Below are positions 10,593 to 38,202 of a stretch of DNA of 38,979 nucleotides, piece by piece (within the stretch, counting starts at the first letter, position 1; each line of letters begins with the position of its first letter). Origin of the DNA: Escherichia phage LM33_P1; the sequence record NC_031937.1; one strand, 5' to 3'. Made by a program: the position numbers and the translations under genes. The notes beneath the pieces were generated by a model. The model searched no databases and was not told the DNA's origin. It was given only the letters and a program-made list of their open reading frames with translations.

Positions 10593-11040
10593 GGTACAGT
10601 TCAATCCACGGTCCCGGACCGACGCTATCTTCGTACACTGTTCGGCTACCAAGCCAGAGATGGACATCGGGGTAGAGACCATCCGTATGTGGCACAAGCA
10701 GCAAGGCTGGCTGGACGTAGGCTACCACTTTATCATCAAGCGCGATGGCACTGTGGAAGAGGGACGCCCGGTCAATGTCGTAGGGTCACACGTTAAGGAC
10801 TGGAACTCACGGTCTGTAGGCGTCTGCCTTGTAGGTGGAATTGACGCTAAGGGCAAGTTTGAAGCTAACTTCACTCCGGCCCAGATGAACTCCCTGCGCA
10901 ACAAGCTGGCTGACCTGAAGGACTTGTATCCTCAGGCAGAAATCAAAGCACATCATGACGTAGCACCAAAGGCGTGTCCAAGTTTCGACTTGCAACGCTG
11001 GCTGTCTACCAATGAACTGGTCACTTCCGACCGAGGCTAA
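10582..11040 (+). CDS. 3.5: N-acetylmuramoyl-L-alanine amidase (T7 lysozyme, RNAP-binding)
   Basis: Strong similarity to T7 gp3.5 (DAIFVHCSATKP, WLDVGYHFIIKRDGTVE, CPSFDL..W....ELVTSDRG). Confidence 0.92.
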   Translation: MVSKVQFNPRSRTDAIFVHCSATKPEMDIGVETIRMWHKQQGWLDVGYHFIIKRDGTVEEGRPVNVVGSHVKDWNSRSVGVCLVGGIDAKGKFEANFTPAQMNSLRNKLADLKDLYPQAEIKAHHDVAPKACPSFDLQRWLSTNELVTSDRG

Positions 11041-11058
11041 ACTATCACCGTAGGGATG
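11036..11058 (+). promoter_or_regulatory. Phage RNAP promoter variant (CTAAACTATCACCGTAGGGATG), followed by 5' stem-loop 11053-11077
   Basis: Consensus match except CG at -4/-3; transcript would start with 10-bp hairpin GGGATGAGAC/GTCTTGTCCC. Confidence 0.55.
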
Positions 11059-11103: not shown

Positions 11104-11182
11104 GTCTCCATAGCTCAAACGGTAGAGCGGCGGGTCGTGATGGCCTATTGCGATTAGGGTTCGAATCCCCGTGGAGACGCCA
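11104..11182 (+). tRNA. tRNA-like element (7-bp acceptor stem, canonical D-arm, T-loop GGTTCGAATCC, encoded CCA; anticodon arm non-canonical)
   Basis: GTCTCCA...TGGAGAC acceptor pairing, D-arm GCTC-AAACGGTA-GAGC, T-arm TAGGG-TTCGAAT-CCCCG, 3' GCCA; 76 nt plus CCA; no well-paired anticodon stem found by hand (candidate loops UCGUGAU or UUGCGAU). Confidence 0.5.
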
Positions 11183-13109: not shown

Positions 13110-13145
13110 GACTCAAGGTCATTCACATAGAGTGGCCTTTATGAT
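13110..13145 (+). promoter_or_regulatory. RNase III-type processing hairpin (AAGGTCA/TGGCCTT) upstream of gene 5
   Basis: Second copy of box AGACTCAAGGTCAT...GTGGCCTTTATGATTA. Confidence 0.5.
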
Positions 13146-13167
13146 TAGACTAAACGGAGGATTAACC

Positions 13168-15339
13168 ATGTTTGACCTTAAGAGTATCTGGGGTTCTGAC
13201 ATCGAGACCAACGGTCTCCTTGATACAGTCTCCCAGTTTCACTGTGGGGTCCTGATTAACGCCGAGTCGAATGAGACCCTTAAGTATGGGGTAGCTCCGA
13301 TGGTCGGTATCGTCGGTGGCTTCAAAGAGTATGTGCAGAAGGTGGAAGAGATTGCCGCATCACCTGATGGTATGCTGGTATTCCACAACGGTATCAACTA
13401 TGACGTCCCGGCTATTGACAAGCTGAAGCGTCTGTACTTCGGGAAACGCTTTAACTTCCCGAAACACAAGATGATTGATACCTTGGTGCTGGGTCGCTTG
13501 ATGTATCCCAACATTAAGTTCTCAGACATGGGCGCAGTGAAAGCTGGTCGTCTGCCACCTAAGATGATGGGACGCCAGTCTCTTGAGGCTTGGGGCTATC
13601 GTCTCGGTGAGATGAAAGGTGAGTACAAACACGATTACGTTGCCAAGTGCAAGGCTGAAGGTATCGAATATAAGGCTGGGGACGAATGGTTGTTCCCGTC
13701 TCAGGAGATGCTAGACTATAACGTTCAAGACGTTGTGGTCACACTGGCGTTGTTCAAGAAGTTCCTGACTGACAAGTATTACTTCCAGTCTGAACAGTTC
13801 GCTTTCGACCAGATTTATGCGTTGCGTCTGGAACATGATGCTGCGTGGACCTGTGCGAAGATGGAACGTAACGGCTATCCGATGAACACCGAGATGGTCG
13901 AAGGCTTATATCGTGAACTCACCGTCAAACGTGCAGAGCTGCTGGACAAGCTGCGTTCGACTTTCGGTAGCTGGTACGCACCAAAGGGCGGAAAGGAGTT
14001 CTTCAAGCACCCACGGACAGGCAAGGACCTTCCGAAGTATCCGAGAGTCGTGTATCCTAAGGTCGGTGGCATCTTTAAGAAGCCGAAGAACAAAGCTCAA
14101 CGCTTAGGTCTTGAACCCTGTGAACGCGATACGCGAGACACGATGGAGGGAGCACCATTCACGCCAATCACTTACGTTGAGTTTAATCCGGGAAGCGGAG
14201 ACCACTTAGCGAAAGTCTTGATGGAGCGTGGCTGGGAGCCTGTGGACTTCACTGACACCGGGAAACCTGTAGTCGATGACGAGACGTTGGAACACGTTAA
14301 GTTACCAGACGCAGAGGCTCAGGCTTGCGTAGAGCTGGTCCGTGAGTATCTGGTAGTCCAGAAGCGCATCGGTCAGGCGGCTGAAGGTAAGAACGCATGG
14401 TTGAAACTTGTAGGTCAAGACGGACGTATGCACGGTTCAATCAACCCATGCGGGGCAGTAACCGGACGTGCGACCCATAGTGCACCAAACATGGCTCAGG
14501 TACCTGCTAACGGTGCTCCGTATGGTGAGACTTGCCGTGGTGCTTTCGGTGCAGCGTGGAACAAGAAGGACGGCAAGCCAGACCCTTGGGTTCAAGTAGG
14601 CGTGGATGCTTCAGGTCTTGAGCTTCGTTGTCTGGGGAACCGAGCGGCACCGTTTGATGGTGGCGACTATGCTAAGACTGTGGTAGAAGGCGACATCCAC
14701 TGGGCCAACGCAGTCAACGCTGGGTTAGCACCTAACGTCCCACGCGACAAGTCGAGCCATGACCACGATGCTTTCCGTAATAACGCCAAGACGTTCATCT
14801 ATGCGTTCCTGTATGGCGCAGGGGCCGCTAAGATTGGACTGATAGTTGGTGGTGGTAAGAAGGAAGGTGCGGCCCTGATGAAGAAATTCATTGAGGGTAC
14901 ACCAGCTATCAAGGACCTCAGGGAAGCTGTGAGTAATACGTTAATCTCAGACTCTAAGTGGGTGGACGGAGAGAACATCGTTAAGTGGAAACGCCGTTGG
15001 CTGCGTGGACTTGATGGTCGCCGTATCCACATCCGGTCTCCACACTCAGCACTGAACGCATTACTTCAAGGTGATGGTGCGGTAGTCTGTAAGACTTGGT
15101 TCACTTGGCTGGAGCGTAACCTCGAAGCTAAGGGCTATGTTCACGGGTGGGATGGGGACTTTGCGATTATGGCATTTGTCCACGATGAAGTTCAGGTTGC
15201 TGCCCGCACCATGGAGATTGCTGAGGACATCGTTAAGGTTGCTCAGTCCACGATGCGCGAGGTGGGTGAGTTCTATCAGTTTAAATGCGTATTGGACACC
15301 GAGGGCAAGATAGGCCCTACGTGGAAAGAATGCCACTAA
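13168..15339 (+). CDS. 5: DNA polymerase (family A) with thioredoxin-binding loop
   Basis: Collinear similarity to T7 gp5 including KYPR...PKVGGIFKKPKNKAQR thioredoxin-binding segment; start taken at ATG after RBS AACGGAGG (track ORF begins 13132 inside the hairpin). Confidence 0.93.
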   Translation: MFDLKSIWGSDIETNGLLDTVSQFHCGVLINAESNETLKYGVAPMVGIVGGFKEYVQKVEEIAASPDGMLVFHNGINYDVPAIDKLKRLYFGKRFNFPKHKMIDTLVLGRLMYPNIKFSDMGAVKAGRLPPKMMGRQSLEAWGYRLGEMKGEYKHDYVAKCKAEGIEYKAGDEWLFPSQEMLDYNVQDVVVTLALFKKFLTDKYYFQSEQFAFDQIYALRLEHDAAWTCAKMERNGYPMNTEMVEGLYRELTVKRAELLDKLRSTFGSWYAPKGGKEFFKHPRTGKDLPKYPRVVYPKVGGIFKKPKNKAQRLGLEPCERDTRDTMEGAPFTPITYVEFNPGSGDHLAKVLMERGWEPVDFTDTGKPVVDDETLEHVKLPDAEAQACVELVREYLVVQKRIGQAAEGKNAWLKLVGQDGRMHGSINPCGAVTGRATHSAPNMAQVPANGAPYGETCRGAFGAAWNKKDGKPDPWVQVGVDASGLELRCLGNRAAPFDGGDYAKTVVEGDIHWANAVNAGLAPNVPRDKSSHDHDAFRNNAKTFIYAFLYGAGAAKIGLIVGGGKKEGAALMKKFIEGTPAIKDLREAVSNTLISDSKWVDGENIVKWKRRWLRGLDGRRIHIRSPHSALNALLQGDGAVVCKTWFTWLERNLEAKGYVHGWDGDFAIMAFVHDEVQVAARTMEIAEDIVKVAQSTMREVGEFYQFKCVLDTEGKIGPTWKECH

Positions 15340-15349
15340 GGAGGTGCAG

Positions 15350-15658
15350 ATGGGCGGTGTAGCCACTCTCCGCTTCCACAAGATGCCTACGGGTTGTATC
15401 GTTTGTGTATCCCACCGTAGAAATCAGGATGGGTACTTTCGGTATACTGTAGGCTCTGCCCGTAAGCCGGGACGTAAAGCGTTTATGTTTCACCGCTGGG
15501 TCTGGGAGCAACAGGTCGGACCGATTCCTGAGGGATTCGAGATAGACCATTTGTGTTTAAACCGTGGGTGCTGTAACATTGAGCACTTGCAGTGTATTGA
15601 CGGGACCGAGCATACTGTCAAGACCAACCGTGAGCGGAAGCTCATCAAGAAGAAATAA
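15350..15658 (+). CDS. HNH endonuclease (putative homing endonuclease)
   Basis: Motif ..FHRWVWEQQVGPIPEGFEIDHLCLNRGCCNIEHLQ..GTEH.. with Cys pairs; RBS AAGGAGG 5 nt upstream of ATG. Confidence 0.8.
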   Translation: MGGVATLRFHKMPTGCIVCVSHRRNQDGYFRYTVGSARKPGRKAFMFHRWVWEQQVGPIPEGFEIDHLCLNRGCCNIEHLQCIDGTEHTVKTNRERKLIKKK

Positions 15659-15669
15659 GGAGAAAGCTA

Positions 15670-15969
15670 ATGGCTATGACCAAACGCGCTATCGTAAGTT
15701 TCAACCTTAAGGCTGTACTTCCTACAGACCAAGAGGAAATCATCATTGGTGGTCTGCGTGAGCTGGCTAAGAGCGTTAACTCAGGTGAAATCGAGCCTGA
15801 CGGTAAGCAGCGCCATATGTTGACCCTGTGGCTAACAGAAGGTATGGACTCGGTGATTGAGTTCGTTCTGCGCGCTAGCTTACGGTCAATGGTTAAAGAT
15901 GCTGTACAGGAATATTCAGACTCAGAGTTCTTCAGTGTCTCACCAGCCACCGTGAGGTTCAAACAATGA
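15670..15969 (+). CDS. 5.5: Gene 5.5 protein (H-NS-binding family)
   Basis: Similarity to T7 gp5.5 (MAMTK...VSF, ..PNGKQ.., ..SPATVR). Confidence 0.8.
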   Translation: MAMTKRAIVSFNLKAVLPTDQEEIIIGGLRELAKSVNSGEIEPDGKQRHMLTLWLTEGMDSVIEFVLRASLRSMVKDAVQEYSDSEFFSVSPATVRFKQ

Positions 15970-16175
15970 GTGAATACTTACGGGTCCTAGCGGCCCTCAA
16001 GTCCTGCCCGAAGACCTTCCAGTCCAACTATGTGCGCAACAACGCTGCACTTGTGGCTGAGGCTGCGAGTCGTGGACATCTAAGCTGCCTGTCTATGGAT
16101 GGGCGTAACAACGGTGCGTGGGAGATTACCGCTGCTGGCACCAAGTTCCTGAACCAACACGGAGGATGCCTGTGA
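15966..16175 (+). CDS. 5.7: Gene 5.7 protein
   Basis: Strong similarity to T7 gp5.7 (LKSCPKTFQSNYVRNNA.LVAEAASRGH.SCL...GRN.GAWEITA.GT.FL...GGC). Confidence 0.85.
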   Translation: MSEYLRVLAALKSCPKTFQSNYVRNNAALVAEAASRGHLSCLSMDGRNNGAWEITAAGTKFLNQHGGCL

Positions 16176-17038
16176 GCGAAAAGAAAATAGCTCTGGTGCT
16201 AGACGGTGACTACTTAGTGTTCTCTTCTATGGCTGCTGCCGAGGACGAGACAGACTGGGGTGATGGCATCTGGACCCTTATCTGCGACCATGAGAAGGCT
16301 CGTCGTATCCTTGAGAACACCATCGCTGAAATCGTTAAGAAGCGTAAGGCGTGGAAAGACGCTAAGATTGTGATGTGCTTTACTGACGATAACAACTGGC
16401 GTAAGGACGTGCTACCTACCTATAAGGCCAACCGTAAAGGTTCTCGCAAGCCTGTAGGTTACAAGAAGTTCGTAGCCGAAGTGATGGCTGACCCACGGTT
16501 CAACAGCTTCCTACGTCCTACACTTGAGGGTGATGACTGTATGGGTATCATCGGGACACGACCTCAGATTGTAGGCTGTGACCATGCTGTTCTGGTGTCC
16601 TGCGATAAGGACTTCAAGACCATCCCGAACTGTGAGTTCTTCTGGTTAACCACTGGTGAAATTCTAAGTCATACTACTGCTGAGGCAGACTACTGGCACA
16701 TGGAGCAGACCATCAAGGGTGACACTACAGATGGCTACGGTGGCATTCCGGGGATGGGCGAGGATACTACTCGTGCGTTCCTTGACGAGCCGTACTACTT
16801 CGTGCAGGAGAGCCGTGAGCTTAAGACTGGCAAGAACAAAGGCCAGATTAAGACTGAGTGGAAGAAGTATCCTAAGCGTGAAGACATGACGCTGTGGGAC
16901 TGCATGGTGACTCTGGCTGCTAAAGCTGGGATGACCGAGGAGGAACTTCTGGTCCAAGCTCAGGTAGCTCGTATTTGTCGAGCCTCCGACTACGACCCTA
17001 CGTCCAAGGAGGTCATCCTATGGACACCATCCATGTAA
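16166..17038 (+). CDS. 6: 5'-3' exonuclease
   Basis: Similarity to T7 gp6 (WRK....YKANRK...KPVGY, SCDKDFKTIPNC.F.W.TTG, WH..QTIKGD.TDGY.GI.G, TLWDC......KAGMTEE); true start may be GTG at 16172 after GGAGG. Confidence 0.9.
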   Translation: MPVSEKKIALVLDGDYLVFSSMAAAEDETDWGDGIWTLICDHEKARRILENTIAEIVKKRKAWKDAKIVMCFTDDNNWRKDVLPTYKANRKGSRKPVGYKKFVAEVMADPRFNSFLRPTLEGDDCMGIIGTRPQIVGCDHAVLVSCDKDFKTIPNCEFFWLTTGEILSHTTAEADYWHMEQTIKGDTTDGYGGIPGMGEDTTRAFLDEPYYFVQESRELKTGKNKGQIKTEWKKYPKREDMTLWDCMVTLAAKAGMTEEELLVQAQVARICRASDYDPTSKEVILWTPSM

Positions 17039-17163: not shown

Positions 17164-17186
17164 CACTAAACTATCACTATAGGGAC
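17164..17186 (+). promoter_or_regulatory. Phage RNAP promoter (CTAAACTATCACTATAGGGACT)
   Basis: Consensus match; position equivalent to T7 phi6.5. Confidence 0.75.
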
Positions 17187-18439: not shown

Positions 18440-20008
18440 ATGGCTGAACGTGAAGGGTTCGCTGCTGAAGGCGCTAAGTCAGTTTATGATAGATTGAAGA
18501 ACGGACGACAGCCTTACGAGACCCGCGCACAGAACTGTGCTGCTGTCACTATCCCGTCACTGTTTCCTAAGGAATCAGACAACTCGTCTACTGAATATAC
18601 CACTCCGTGGCAAGCTGTAGGTGCTCGCTGCTTGAACAACTTGGCTGCAAAGCTGATGTTGGCGTTATTCCCTCAGTCACCGTGGATGCGACTGACAGTC
18701 TCCGAATATGAGGCCAAGACCTTGAGTCAGGACTCAGAGGCTGCTGCTCGTGTTGACGAAGGGCTTGCTATGGTCGAGCGTGTGTTGATGGCCTACATGG
18801 AGACTAACAGTTTCCGTGTGCCATTGTTCGAAGCTCTGAAGCAGCTTATCGTCTCCGGTAACTGTCTGCTTTACATTCCAGAGCCTGAACAGGGTACTTA
18901 CAGTCCGATGCGGATGTACCGCTTAGTGTCTTACGTTGTTCAACGTGATGCGTTCGGTAACATCTTGCAGATTGTGACTCTCGACAAGGTAGCTTTCAGT
19001 GCTCTACCGGAAGACGTGAAGTCTCAACTCAATGCAGACGACTATGAGCCTGACACCGAGCTTGAAGTGTATACGCACATCTACCGTCAAGACGACGAGT
19101 ATCTACGCTACGAGGAAGTGGAAGGGATTGAGGTAGCAGGGACCGATGGTTCCTACCCGCTGACTGCATGTCCGTACATCCCGGTACGAATGGTTCGACT
19201 GGATGGTGAAGACTACGGTCGTTCTTACTGCGAGGAGTATCTGGGCGACCTTAACTCGCTGGAGACGATTACAGAAGCTATCACCAAAATGGCTAAGGTA
19301 GCCTCCAAGGTGGTGGGACTCGTTAACCCGAACGGTATCACGCAACCTCGACGTCTGAACAAGGCGGCTACAGGTGAGTTCGTGGCTGGTCGCGTTGAGG
19401 ACATCAACTTCCTGCAACTGACGAAAGGTCAGGACTTTACGATTGCCAAGTCGGTGGCTGACGCTATAGAGCAACGTTTAGGCTGGGCCTTCCTTCTTAA
19501 TAGTGCTGTTCAGCGTAATGCCGAGCGGGTCACTGCTGAAGAGATTCGTTATGTTGCTGGCGAACTGGAGGCGACCTTAGGTGGCGTGTACTCAGTACAA
19601 TCACAAGAGCTTCAGTTGCCTATCGTCCGTGTGCTGATGAACCAGCTTCAGTCTGCTGGCATGATTCCTGACCTTCCGAAAGAAGCGGTAGAGCCTACGG
19701 TCTCCACTGGTCTTGAAGCGTTAGGCCGTGGTCAAGACTTAGAGAAGCTGACTCAGGCAGTCAACATGATGACCGGGCTACAGCCTCTGGCTCAGGACCC
19801 AGACATTAACTTGCCGACCCTGAAGCTGCGACTGCTGAATGCCTTAGGCATTGACACCGCTGGTCTACTCCTTACGCAGGACGAGAAGATTCAGCGCATG
19901 GCTGAACAGTCGTCTCAACAGGCAGTAGTCCAAGGTGCTGGTGCTGCTGGTGCCAACATGGGCGCTGCTGTAGGTCAGGGAGCTGGTGAGGACATGGCTC
20001 AAGCCTAA
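18440..20008 (+). CDS. 8: Head-to-tail connector (portal) protein
   Basis: Collinear similarity to T7 gp8 (GAKSVY.RLKN.R.PYETRAQNCA..TIPSLFPK.SDN.ST.Y.TPWQAVGAR.LNNLA.KLMLALFP). Confidence 0.93.
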   Translation: MAEREGFAAEGAKSVYDRLKNGRQPYETRAQNCAAVTIPSLFPKESDNSSTEYTTPWQAVGARCLNNLAAKLMLALFPQSPWMRLTVSEYEAKTLSQDSEAAARVDEGLAMVERVLMAYMETNSFRVPLFEALKQLIVSGNCLLYIPEPEQGTYSPMRMYRLVSYVVQRDAFGNILQIVTLDKVAFSALPEDVKSQLNADDYEPDTELEVYTHIYRQDDEYLRYEEVEGIEVAGTDGSYPLTACPYIPVRMVRLDGEDYGRSYCEEYLGDLNSLETITEAITKMAKVASKVVGLVNPNGITQPRRLNKAATGEFVAGRVEDINFLQLTKGQDFTIAKSVADAIEQRLGWAFLLNSAVQRNAERVTAEEIRYVAGELEATLGGVYSVQSQELQLPIVRVLMNQLQSAGMIPDLPKEAVEPTVSTGLEALGRGQDLEKLTQAVNMMTGLQPLAQDPDINLPTLKLRLLNALGIDTAGLLLTQDEKIQRMAEQSSQQAVVQGAGAAGANMGAAVGQGAGEDMAQA

Positions 20009-35441: not shown

Positions 35442-35636
35442 ATGATTGAGTTAGACTTCAAGAATGAGGTCCTCAAAGCCTCGCCTATCGTCGGGACCGC
35501 TGCGGCTGATGGTGCCAGTCGGTTCTTCTTTGGGCTAACGCTCAACGAATGGTTCTACGTCGCTGCTATCGCGTACACCGTGGTGCAGATTGGCGTCCTA
35601 ATTTACAAGACGATTAAGAGCGGAGGTAAGACATGA
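35442..35636 (+). CDS. 17.5: Holin (class II, T7 gp17.5-like)
   Basis: Similarity to T7 holin (..LDF.NE..KA.PIVGT..AD...R.FFGL.LNEWFYVAAIAYTVVQIG). Confidence 0.8.
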   Translation: MIELDFKNEVLKASPIVGTAAADGASRFFFGLTLNEWFYVAAIAYTVVQIGVLIYKTIKSGGKT

Positions 35637-35896
35637 CGCAGATGGACTTAGAGAAGTTCCTGTTAATGCTGGACACAGAACGTGCTAGACTAATGCTGCA
35701 AGACCTGCGGGATGACACTAAGCGTTCACCTCAGCTCTACAACGCCATTGAGAAACTGCTTGCTCGACACAACTTTGTGTTAAGCAAGGTGTCTGTGGAC
35801 GAGAAGACGCTGGCGGATATGGAGGCCTTGAACGAAGAGTACGATAAGGTGCTTTCAGCTACTGAGGATAATGACACCGGGTATGGTGTTCAATAA
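35633..35896 (+). CDS. 18: Terminase small subunit
   Basis: Similarity to T7 gp18 (..FL.MLDT..A..ML.DL.D...RSPQLYNAI.KLL.RH.F). Confidence 0.8.
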   Translation: MTQMDLEKFLLMLDTERARLMLQDLRDDTKRSPQLYNAIEKLLARHNFVLSKVSVDEKTLADMEALNEEYDKVLSATEDNDTGYGVQ

Positions 35897-35992: not shown

Positions 35993-36442
35993 ATGCTCGA
36001 ATTTTTAAAGAGAGCGGCTCCGTGGTTACTTGCAGCAGTGATGTTTGCTGGTGGCTACCACACCGCTAACAATAAGTGGGAGGCTAAGGTCAATGCAGAA
36101 TACACCTCGAATCTTAAGGCATCGGAAGATACAAGGCTTGCTGTCCAAGCTGAAGTCAACAAAGTGTCCAAACGGTTTCAGGACGAAATGTCCTCGCTGG
36201 AAGGCAGCACTGATAGGATTATTGCTGACCTTCAGTCTGACAATAAGCGGTTGCGCATCCGAGTCAAACCAACGAGTGGAACCACGCAAAGTGACGGTCG
36301 ATGCTTCATTGATGGTTACGCCGAACTTGACGAACGAGATGCTAAACGTCTTATCGCCATCGGAGTGAAAGGAGACAAGTGGATTAAGGCCCTTCAAGAC
36401 ACTGTGAGAGCCTTACAGCAAGAGAAGGAGGTGACGCATTGA
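35993..36442 (+). CDS. 18.5: Rz-like i-spanin
   Basis: Similarity to T7 gp18.5 (MLEFL....PW.LA...[30 protein letters not shown]...GD.WI.ALQDT.R.LQ). Confidence 0.8.
36093..36368 (+). CDS. 18.7: Rz1-like o-spanin lipoprotein embedded in +1 frame within Rz
   Basis: Embedded ORF encodes signal-like [15 protein letters not shown] with lipobox-like ISGC and C-terminal ..MV.PNLT.EMLNV; start codon uncertain. Confidence 0.55.
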   Translation: MQNTPRILRHRKIQGLLSKLKSTKCPNGFRTKCPRWKAALIGLLLTFSLTISGCASESNQRVEPRKVTVDASLMVTPNLTNEMLNVLSPSE

Positions 36443-38202
36443 GTAAAGACTTAGTGGCGCGTCAGGCGCTAATGACTGCACGTATGAAGTCAGACTTCGT
36501 GTTCTTCCTGTTCGTCCTGTGGAAAGCTCTGTCGCTCCCAGTCCCGACTCGCTGTCAGATTGACATGGCGAAGAAACTATCGGCTGGGGACAACAGGCGC
36601 TTCATCCTACAGGCGTTCCGTGGTATAGGGAAGTCCTTCATTACGTGTGCCTTCGTTGTCTGGAAGCTATGGAACAACCCAGACTTGAAGTTCATGATTG
36701 TGTCGGCCTCAAAGGAGCGAGCCGATGCTAACTCCATCTTCATCAAGCGAATCATCGACCTCATGCCTCAGCTTCAGGAACTCAAACCTAAGCAGGGACA
36801 GCGAGATGCGGTTATTAGCTTCGACGTGGGACCTGCCAAGCCAGACCACTCACCTTCGGTTAAGTCCGTTGGTATCACTGGTCAGTTGACTGGTAGTCGT
36901 GCTGACATCCTGATTGCCGATGACGTGGAGGTTCCGAACAACTCAGCGACTCAGGCTGCACGAGACCGTCTATCAGAGCTTGTGAAAGAGTTCGACGCTA
37001 TCCTGAAGCCGGGAGGTACGATCATCTATCTGGGTACTCCTCAGAACGAGATGACCCTGTACCGTGAGCTGGAAGGTCGTGGGTACACCACTACTATCTG
37101 GCCCGCTCGTTATCCACGCGACAGGAAGGACTGGCAGTCTTACGGCGACCGTCTGGCTCCTATGCTTCAGGAAGAGCTGGAAGAGGACCCTGAGTCCTTC
37201 TACTGGCGTCCGACTGATGAAGTACGCTTCGATGATACGGACCTGAAGGAACGTGAGCTGTCCTACGGTAAAGCTGGCTTCGCTCTACAGTTCATGCTTA
37301 ACCCGAACCTGAGTGATGCCGAGAAGTACCCTCTTAAGCTCCGTGACCTTATCGTAGCCGACTTGGACCCAGCGTCCAGCCCAATGGTCTACCAATGGTT
37401 GCCGAACCCTCAGAACAAGCGTGAGGACGTTCCTAACGTTGGACTCATGGGTGACTCGTACCACACGTATCAGACTGTAGGTTCTGCCTTCAGCTCATAC
37501 ACCCAGAAGATTCTGGTCATTGACCCTAGTGGTCGTGGTAAGGATGAAACTGGATATGCGGTACTGTACCAGCTCAACGGCTACATCTTCGCTATGGAAG
37601 TTGGTGGCATGCGTGGTGGTTATGAAGACTCTACGCTGGAAGCCTTGGCTAAGATTGGTCGTAAGTGGAGGGTCAACGAATACGTCATTGAGGGTAACTT
37701 CGGTGATGGTATGTACCTTGAGTTATTCAAGCCTGTAGCTGCCCGTATCCATCCTGCTGCTGTAACTGAAGTGAAGAGTAAGGGTCAGAAAGAACTCCGC
37801 ATCTGTGACGTTCTGGAGCCTATCATGGGGTCTCACAGACTTATCGTTAACGCTGCCGCTATCGTCCAAGACTACCAGTCAGCCTCTGATAAGGATGGTG
37901 TTCGTAACCCTATCTACTCTCTCTTCTACCAGATGACTCGTATCTCTCGTGAACGTGGAGCATTGGCACATGATGACCGACTTGATGCGCTGGCTATCGG
38001 TGTACAGTTCTTCGTTGAGTCGATGGCTAAGGATGCCAACAAAGGCGAACGTGAAGTCACTGAGGAGTGGCTGGAGGAACAGATGGAGAACCCACGGAAA
38101 GGCTTCGAGTCCATCCACACTGAGTTCTGGGACAATGGGGTCCGGGTAACTCACGATACGGACGACGAGCTTGGACTAGGGTCATACGTTACGTTCCACT
38201 AG
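36439..38202 (+). CDS. 19: Terminase large subunit
   Basis: Extensive similarity to T7 gp19 ([83 protein letters not shown]); apparent TTG start 5 nt after AAGGAGGTGA. Confidence 0.93.

Follow-up and report, generated by a model that had tools for sequence, protein, structure and literature searches.

A predicted free-standing HNH homing endonuclease of the T3 gene 5.3 type downstream of the DNA polymerase gene of Escherichia phage LM33_P1

The analyzed window is the complete stretch of 38,979 nt in sequence record NC_031937.1 of Escherichia phage LM33_P1, a K1F-like Kayfunavirus of the T7 group (Autographiviridae, Studiervirinae). It matches the Kayfunavirus LM33P1 genome OZ035813.1 with 100% identity, with a rotation of 3,376 nt between the two. 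Between gene 5, encoding the DNA polymerase, and gene 5.5, a small ORF with the signature of an HNH endonuclease was identified (Table 1). The ORF extends from an ATG at position 15350 to a TAA at 15656-15658, whereas in the mechanical ORF list its start had been pushed to a GTG at 15344 (104 aa). The initial annotation had described a tight coupling of this ORF to the gene 5 stop codon through the sequence AAGGAGG. This was confirmed, as the Shine-Dalgarno sequence overlaps the stop codon and is located 5 nt before the ATG.

The polymerase residue numbers given below (684 and 685) are based on the gene 5 ORF counted from the GTG at 13132. The annotated polymerases of related phages are 723 aa in length and the similarity to K1F starts at residue 8 of the mechanical gene 5 ORF. 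The true start of gene 5 is therefore probably an ATG about 12 codons past this GTG (window positions 13132-13170).

Table 1. Features of the gene 5 to gene 5.5 region of LM33_P1 and forms of the corresponding slot in Kayfunaviruses. Positions refer to the window unless a locus is named; a hyphen within a polymerase sequence marks the intron insertion position.
Feature	Position	Strand	Remarks
Phage RNA polymerase promoter-like site, nearest upstream of the HNH gene	11038..11054	+	EcoDS1 phi6.5 consensus match
Gene 5, DNA polymerase (DNA polymerase I homologue)	13132..15339	+	Host gene of the predicted target; 735-codon ORF from first GTG
Co-inherited 3' tail of gene 5, divergent tract	15075..15339	+	Left edge about 15065-15080; ~265 nt
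Predicted target, LM33_P1 version (polymerase motif C, FAIMAFVH-DEVQVAA)	15163..15204	+	Centred on the intron insertion position between 15183 and 15184
Shine-Dalgarno sequence AAGGAGG	15338..15344	+	Overlaps gene 5 stop TAA 15337-15339; 5 nt to HNH ATG; read off the sequence
331-bp insertion relative to empty-site relatives	15340..15670	+	Junction comparison with EcoDS1, PE3-1, IMG/VR L012, L015, L017 and others; sliding identity profile
Predicted HNH homing endonuclease gene, T3 gene 5.3 orthologue	15350..15658	+	102 aa plus stop
Gene 5.5 (H-NS inhibitor family)	15670..15969	+	PF11247, E 7e-23; right boundary of cassette
Next phage RNA polymerase promoter-like site	17167-17183		EcoDS1 phi6.5 consensus match
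Gene 5/5.5 slot form: empty			~33 Kayfunavirus loci compared
Gene 5/5.5 slot form: LM33_P1-type HNH			
Gene 5/5.5 slot form: second HNH lineage, 74-77% identical	L019, L023		
Gene 5/5.5 slot form: T7-5.3-like PD-(D/E)XK nuclease	L018:3306-3728, L027:3306-3734, L029:3306-3728		PF11645, E 3e-10
Gene 5/5.5 slot form: 58-60-aa ORF			phrog_20928
Gene 5/5.5 slot form: 81-aa ORF			phrog_18049

For the identification of phage RNA polymerase promoters, the consensus was taken from the annotated EcoDS1 phi6.5 promoter. Between the promoter-like sites at 11038 and 17167 no further site matching this consensus was found, and a search of 14900-16200 revealed neither a sigma-70-like promoter nor an intrinsic terminator. 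The HNH gene therefore appears to have no promoter of its own. The promoter and terminator pattern places it in a gene 4-5-5.5-6 transcription unit, in which it probably relies on its own strong ribosome binding site.

About 50 nt past the promoter-like site at 11038-11054 and just before the primase/helicase gene (11197), a tRNA-like element was detected on the plus strand (11104-11182). ARAGORN assigned it to tRNA-Thr (anticodon CGT) and the Rfam tRNA model scored 36.7 bits (gathering score 29). The tRNA-like 107 nt are found with 95-100% identity in 31 of 33 Kayfunavirus-like GenBank records, where the element is labelled tRNA-Thr, tRNA-OTHER, pseudo-tRNA or not labelled. It may act as a tRNA or serve as a signal for RNA processing.

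The HNH signature assigned to the 102-aa ORF from the letters alone was borne out by the profile search that had been proposed as a check. A strong match to the Pfam family HNH_3 (PF13392) was obtained for aa 46-88 (E 4.9e-17) with 61.7 bits, which is above the curated cut-off of 24.8 bits. The ORF also matched PHROG endonuclease families (E 6e-28 and 2e-23) and, weakly, the zinc-binding His-Me endonuclease loop family (zf-His_Me_endon). The motifs DH.C.NR.CCN..HL (aa 66-80) and EH (aa 78-79 and 87-88) as well as the cysteines (CIVC at aa 16-19, others at positions 69, 74, 75 and 82) are present as described, whereas the motif given as H..W....G was one residue off and reads H...W....G (HRWVWEQQVG, aa 48-57). 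No second HNH paralogue was found in the LM33_P1 genome. The GC content of the insert (51.1%) is close to that of the genome (50.2%), and a compositionally foreign island was rejected on this basis.

In the alignment of 17 homologues, C16, G28, Y29, H48, R49, W52, H79 and L80 are invariant and H67, C69, N71, R72, C74 and N76 are near-invariant. Asp66-His67, Asn76, His79 and His88 are conserved in this set, which covers the Asp-His pair acting as general base, the structural Asn and the distal His/Asn that binds the metal, so that the catalytic His and Asn residues, whose loss on alignment had been named as an argument against an HNH enzyme, are retained in the family. The AlphaFold2 model derived from these homologues has a mean pLDDT of 84.3 and shows the beta-beta-alpha-metal fold as predicted structure.

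The match to I-HmuI (PDB 1u3e) in single-sequence and profile searches of the PDB was marginal (E 0.054), and the folds had to be compared. According to the profile alignment, the spacing of Asp74-His75, Asn87 and Asn96 in I-HmuI corresponds to Asp66-His67, His79 and His88 in the LM33_P1 protein. Functional roles have reportedly been assigned to these I-HmuI residues. With 102 aa compared to 174 aa in I-HmuI, the LM33_P1 protein comprises the N-terminal sheet and the catalytic core, but not the additional helical and helix-turn-helix DNA-binding domains at the C-terminus. The family of the LM33_P1 protein in turn has a conserved Cys cluster (C16, C69, C74/75), which I-HmuI lacks. The characterised relatives I-HmuI, I-HmuII, I-BasI and I-PfoP3I are nickases. 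For a 102-aa HNH protein without C-terminal DNA-binding domains of the I-HmuI type, specificity for a long site is a point that counts against a homing model.

A comparison of the gene 5 to gene 5.5 interval across related phages, likewise proposed beforehand, showed that the gene is present or absent as an exact unit of 331 bp and that close relatives without it have precise empty sites. In EcoDS1, PE3-1 and many IMG/VR loci, the empty site reads CAC TAA TG GCT ATG ACC, and the gene 5 stop codon overlaps the gene 5.5 start codon. Since the insert ends with a second TAA, its placement is ambiguous by 3 nt.

The suggestion that this interval is an insertion hotspot held as well, because it takes several forms among about 33 Kayfunavirus loci (Table 1). 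The second HNH lineage and the carriers of the PD-(D/E)XK nuclease have an identical third type of polymerase tail (FALMAWIH-DELQIACRT), which suggests a turnover of nucleases on a common linked allele.

Two loci, L012 and L032, contain a distantly related HNH gene (38-43% identity over part of the query) before gene 5, about 2350 nt upstream of the VH-DE position, while their gene 5/5.5 slot is empty. This upstream gene marks a further place in the replication module at which an endonuclease gene has inserted. Gene 5.5 itself occurs as two alleles with about 45-50% DNA identity (window 15670-15969 and loci L001 and L005-L009). The change in identity at the gene borders is abrupt, and which allele is present does not depend on the presence of the HNH gene. 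Two GenBank records with unrelated host names, OR786095.1 ('Staphylococcus phage MBBL139') and MT350292.1 ('Enterococcus phage EFA-1'), are about 93% identical to LM33_P1 across the replication module; probably the hosts have been misassigned, or contaminating phages were sequenced.

Next to the insertion, the 3' end of gene 5 was found to be divergent. The identity between LM33_P1 and empty-site phages is 93-98% up to about position 15060, 57-78% over the remainder of gene 5 and again 88-98% from the first codon of gene 5.5. For all eight HNH-bearing phages analyzed, the identity to HNH-less relatives goes down from 93-100% (96-100% for the best match to any phage without this HNH gene) to 50-85%, in each case 105-120 nt before the intron insertion site described below. 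The most diverged block has about 50% identity and is located at -105 to -75. Within the tract, HNH-bearing phages share 82.6-98% identity among themselves, and their identity to HNH-less phages does not exceed 73.6%. Upstream of it, the nearest neighbours of HNH-bearing phages are often HNH-less, and various, and downstream of the HNH gene the carriers have either of the two very different gp5.5 alleles.

A search for the tail tract at an identity of at least 83% resulted in 22 GenBank records besides LM33_P1, with the next best match at 78%. This search was performed in distant mode, as megablast, which retrieved 17 records with a 280-nt query from the gene 5 tail, was not sensitive enough. 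Exactly those records that encode an HNH protein with at least 86% identity account for 21 of the 22, and the remaining one, CHRF_10023.2, stops 95 nt past the tract. In these comparisons the tail is always inherited together with the HNH gene, and its phylogeny disagrees with that of the backbone upstream, an indirect, comparative sign of co-conversion. Based on the linkage, the tract identities and the record sets, the HNH gene acts with the final ~265 nt of gene 5 as one cassette of ~600 bp on different backbones.

The identical left boundary in the eight HNH-bearing phages fits equally well to a cassette that was acquired once, long ago, and has been kept together by ordinary linkage since. 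Since all eight left boundaries coincide, the boundary comparison gives the same result for a single origin and for repeated homing, and the latter needs the extra assumption that recombination resolves only upstream of the most diverged block.

Homologues of the HNH protein with an identity of at least 60% were found in about 110 GenBank phage records. The closest are those of Salmonella Kayfunaviruses (ST21, CHRF_300xx) with 98% identity, followed by about 14 E. coli Kayfunaviruses with 86-89% (both tblastn). Gene 5.3 of phiYeO3-12, which is also located between genes 5 and 5.5, encodes a product with 77.5% identity.

The likeness to gene 5.3 of phage T3 is extensive. The two proteins have a similar length (101 aa in T3 and 102 aa in LM33_P1), are 78% identical over 101 aa and have in common the HNH_3 signature together with the weak zf-His_Me_endon signature. 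Both genes occupy the slot between gene 5 and gene 5.5 with a ribosome binding site directly after the gene 5 stop codon. The host phages differ, as T3 is a Teetrevirus and LM33_P1 a Kayfunavirus, and the linked polymerase site reads FAYMAWIH-DEIQVAC in T3 compared to FAIMAFVH-DEVQVAA in LM33_P1. While the HNH proteins of LM33_P1 and T3 are 78% identical, the values for gp5, gp6 and gp5.5 are 55%, 52% and 37%, respectively. The higher identity of the HNH protein compared to gp5 and gp6 suggests a lateral spread between the genera. By its sequence, the LM33_P1 ORF is a predicted HNH homing endonuclease of the already characterised free-standing family of the T3 gene 5.3 type.

T3 gene 5.3 is reportedly a homing endonuclease gene that spreads efficiently into the empty sites of related phages, and its product is said to cut intronless polymerase genes where the PhiI intron-encoded I-TslI cuts. 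The name F-TslI is reportedly used for this product, although a literature search on that name returned no paper.

The initial annotation had placed the ORF in the position of T7 gene 5.3. This is correct for the position, since T7 gene 5.3 and related PD-(D/E)XK proteins (PF11645) are found in the same gene 5/5.5 slot. It does not apply to the kinship: T7 gp5.3 belongs to an unrelated nuclease superfamily (PF11645, E 1e-10) and has no sequence similarity to the LM33_P1 protein, the true orthologue of which is T3 gene 5.3. The free-standing homing endonucleases of the T4 type (MobE and the Seg proteins) have the same lifestyle, termed 'intronless homing', but belong to another phage group. Most Seg proteins are GIY-YIG enzymes, and the LM33_P1 protein is far smaller. 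In two sources, this lifestyle is described as a location beside an essential gene, a cut away from the insertion point and a co-conversion of the flanks (PMC3984707; PMC10448857).

A candidate for the target site was derived from intron-encoded relatives in T7-like phages (I-TslI of PhiI/W31 and gene 5.3 of K1F), which have a homologous HNH_3 domain and are tied to the same polymerase position, VH-DE of motif C. Their genes lie inside a group I intron of gene 5, and the encoded proteins, 131 aa in length, are extended by ~30 aa at the C-terminus. In K1F, the type Kayfunavirus, the HNH protein is 50% identical to that of LM33_P1, and its gene is located in an intervening sequence within gene 5. 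A local permissive Rfam search assigned this sequence to the group I introns (RF00028; E 3e-7, 35.7 bits); at the gathering threshold (score 50) Rfam missed it. Using LM33_P1 gp5 in tblastn, this intron was placed between residues 684 and 685 of the gene 5 ORF (His and Asp of VHDE), corresponding to a position between 15183 and 15184 of the window. The position is 166 nt upstream of the HNH start codon and ~155 nt before the end of gene 5. The K1F exon ends with T and the intron with G, as expected for group I introns.

Three IMG/VR loci (L022, L041 and L042) also have an intron with an HNH gene at the VH-DE position. A further locus carries an ORF-less intron there (L043:3160-3542; 48.5 bits, E 4e-11), and no HNH homologue was detectable in this locus. 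In contrast to the intron-encoded proteins, the LM33_P1 protein is free-standing and gene 5 of LM33_P1 is intronless: the Rfam intron search of the window gave no match and gene 5 is colinear with that of intronless relatives. A membership in the intron-encoded I-TslI type was rejected, as the ORF follows the gene 5 stop codon and no intron is present.

PMC10448857 describes for free-standing endonucleases of T3 and T7-like phages that the polymerase gene is cut at the group I intron insertion site. In general terms, the counterpart of an intron insertion site is given as the target of a free-standing endonuclease in PMC3984707. By analogy to these systems, VH-DE in motif C is the probable cleavage target in rival phages.

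The sequence at this position differs between carriers and non-carriers. All eight HNH-bearing phages examined have FAIMAFVH-DEVQ(V/I)AART, whereas empty-site and intron-bearing Kayfunaviruses have FAYMAWVH-DELQIACRT and T7 has FAYMAWVH-DEIQVGCRT. None of the ~17 FAYMAWVH phages has a free-standing HNH gene after gene 5. Two differences are fixed between the groups: in the carriers, a Trp located three codons ahead of the site is replaced by Phe, and a Leu three codons past it by Val. On the nucleotide level, the site in LM33_P1 is GCGATTATGGCATTTGTCCAC followed by GATGAAGTTCAGGTTGCT, compared to GCGTACATGGCATGGGTGCAT followed by GACGAATTGCAGATTGCG in empty-site phages, and the whole tract has diverged, not the site alone. 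No second sequence resembling the target was found in the LM33_P1 genome when up to 8 mismatches over 42 nt were allowed. An altered site in the carrier itself is a prediction of the homing model, in which the carrier protects itself, and LM33_P1 would accordingly be immune to its own enzyme. Since the tract of HNH-bearing phages differs from that of HNH-less phages throughout, the site differences by themselves are no proof of such an immunity.

Taken together, the most probable reading, to which we assign a probability of roughly 0.78, is that the gene is the Kayfunavirus equivalent of T3 gene 5.3 and codes for a small, free-standing homing endonuclease of the HNH (His-Me finger) type that cuts gene 5 of rival phages near VH-DE. 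The HNH gene would share its transcript with the class II replication genes, and its translation would start from the strong site overlapping the gene 5 stop codon. In a co-infection with an HNH-less relative, the enzyme would nick or cut the polymerase gene of the rival at or near VH-DE, the position at which related phages hold a group I intron with a homologous HNH gene. The break would be repaired by recombination with LM33_P1 DNA as template, and this repair would copy the HNH gene along with ~265 nt of neighbouring gene 5 sequence as a cassette of ~600 bp (15075-15670). The site variant of LM33_P1 (IMAF..V..A instead of YMAW..L..C) presumably escapes cleavage. In this scheme, we infer the catalytic activity, the exact cut site, the type of cut (nick or double-strand break) and the immunity of the own allele. 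The initial annotation had proposed a mobile free-standing HNH homing endonuclease beside the polymerase gene, which agrees with the domain, the fold, the orthology, the exact polymorphism and the linked flank. On the same evidence, the enzyme may also be able to bias marker inheritance in mixed infections, as had been predicted.

An alternative target is the empty gene 5/5.5 junction itself (CACTAATGGCTATGACC) instead of the intron site in motif C. The insertion is exact at this junction, the junction sequence is conserved among empty-site phages, and a cut at the empty insertion site itself is the simplest arrangement for homing. However, such a target does not predict the divergent tract of 265 nt that lies upstream and brackets the intron site, and homologous HNH genes are found in introns at VH-DE in K1F and in L022, L041 and L042. 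T3-type cleavage is placed at the intron insertion sequence in PMC10448857. In addition, empty-site phages with different gp5.5 alleles have different junctions, which limits a target of this kind. A homing endonuclease with the junction as its target is thus considered unlikely.

The HNH gene could also encode a nuclease domesticated for the benefit of the phage, acting in the exclusion of competitors or on replication and recombination intermediates. Homing would then be incidental or lost, and the linkage of the tail would reflect one ancient acquisition. For this speaks the strength of purifying selection: in comparisons of the LM33_P1 HNH gene with seven Kayfunavirus homologues, dN/dS was 0.02-0.05 at a dS of 0.7-2.3 (Nei-Gojobori), which is in the same range as for the adjacent polymerase tail. 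The left boundary shared by all carriers and the co-transcription with replication genes are in line with it as well. On the other hand, the gene is missing from ~90% of the 263 Kayfunavirus-level GenBank matches, and its absence from most close relatives indicates that it is dispensable. The occurrence of the cassette on different backbones and beside both gp5.5 alleles implies repeated transfer. We regard a domesticated nuclease as improbable on these grounds. Since cutting the polymerase gene of competitors is the same molecular mechanism in both cases, domestication and homing differ mainly in the beneficiary, and domesticated competitor exclusion and selfish homing are inseparable with these data.

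It is very unlikely that the gene is an inactive and decaying remnant of a homing endonuclease. The protein is small with its 102 aa compared to the 174 aa of I-HmuI, and homing endonuclease genes often decay once they are fixed. However, T3 gp5.3 has a similar length of 101 aa, all carriers have an intact ORF, and the catalytic residues have been retained. The dN/dS of 0.02-0.05, determined at a dS of 0.7-2.3, indicates that the gene is maintained and not decaying, and the pseudogene reading was rejected on this value together with the intact catalytic residues.

The assistance in packaging that had also been considered, in which the HNH protein would serve the terminase as a cofactor like that of HK97-like cos phages, has a general precedent only and can practically be dismissed: the terminase genes (35633-35896 and 36439-38202) are ~20 kb away, the portal gene is located at 18440-20008, and the HNH gene is part of the replication module and missing from most close relatives. 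A terminase-associated HNH protein of the HK97 gp74 type, which is needed for cos cleavage, was likewise rejected, as the gene adjoins neither terminase nor portal genes.

For the preferred reading as a free-standing homing endonuclease, a wider interpretation may be considered. The ~600-bp cassette of HNH gene and tail might, as one mobile unit, rewrite the neighbourhood of the catalytic motif C in an essential polymerase (IMAF for YMAW, V for L, A for C). Together with the turnover between unrelated nucleases in the slot and the third tail allele (FALMAWIH) shared by two kinds of carriers, this would suggest an ongoing contest of several nucleases over one polymerase site in Kayfunaviruses. 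We put this forward tentatively and hold it to be somewhat doubtful. If true, it could have consequences for the function of the polymerase and for recombination barriers between therapeutic phages. A limited literature search found no Kayfunavirus paper on such a cassette or nuclease contest.

The comparative pattern around the HNH gene is clear but expected. As the family and the mechanism were described for T3 in 2009, the current understanding is unchanged. For phage therapy directed at E. coli ST131-O25b, LM33_P1 is a candidate. If the endonuclease is functional, the polymerase gene of related Kayfunaviruses could be cut in cocktails or natural co-infections, and the ~600-bp cassette could be driven into these relatives, skewing the progeny and making recombinants. 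Within one genus, a natural series is present that consists of the empty site, the free-standing HNH gene, the intron with an HNH gene, the ORF-less intron and the PD-(D/E)XK nuclease, and this series illustrates the proposed route from a free-standing endonuclease to a mobile intron.
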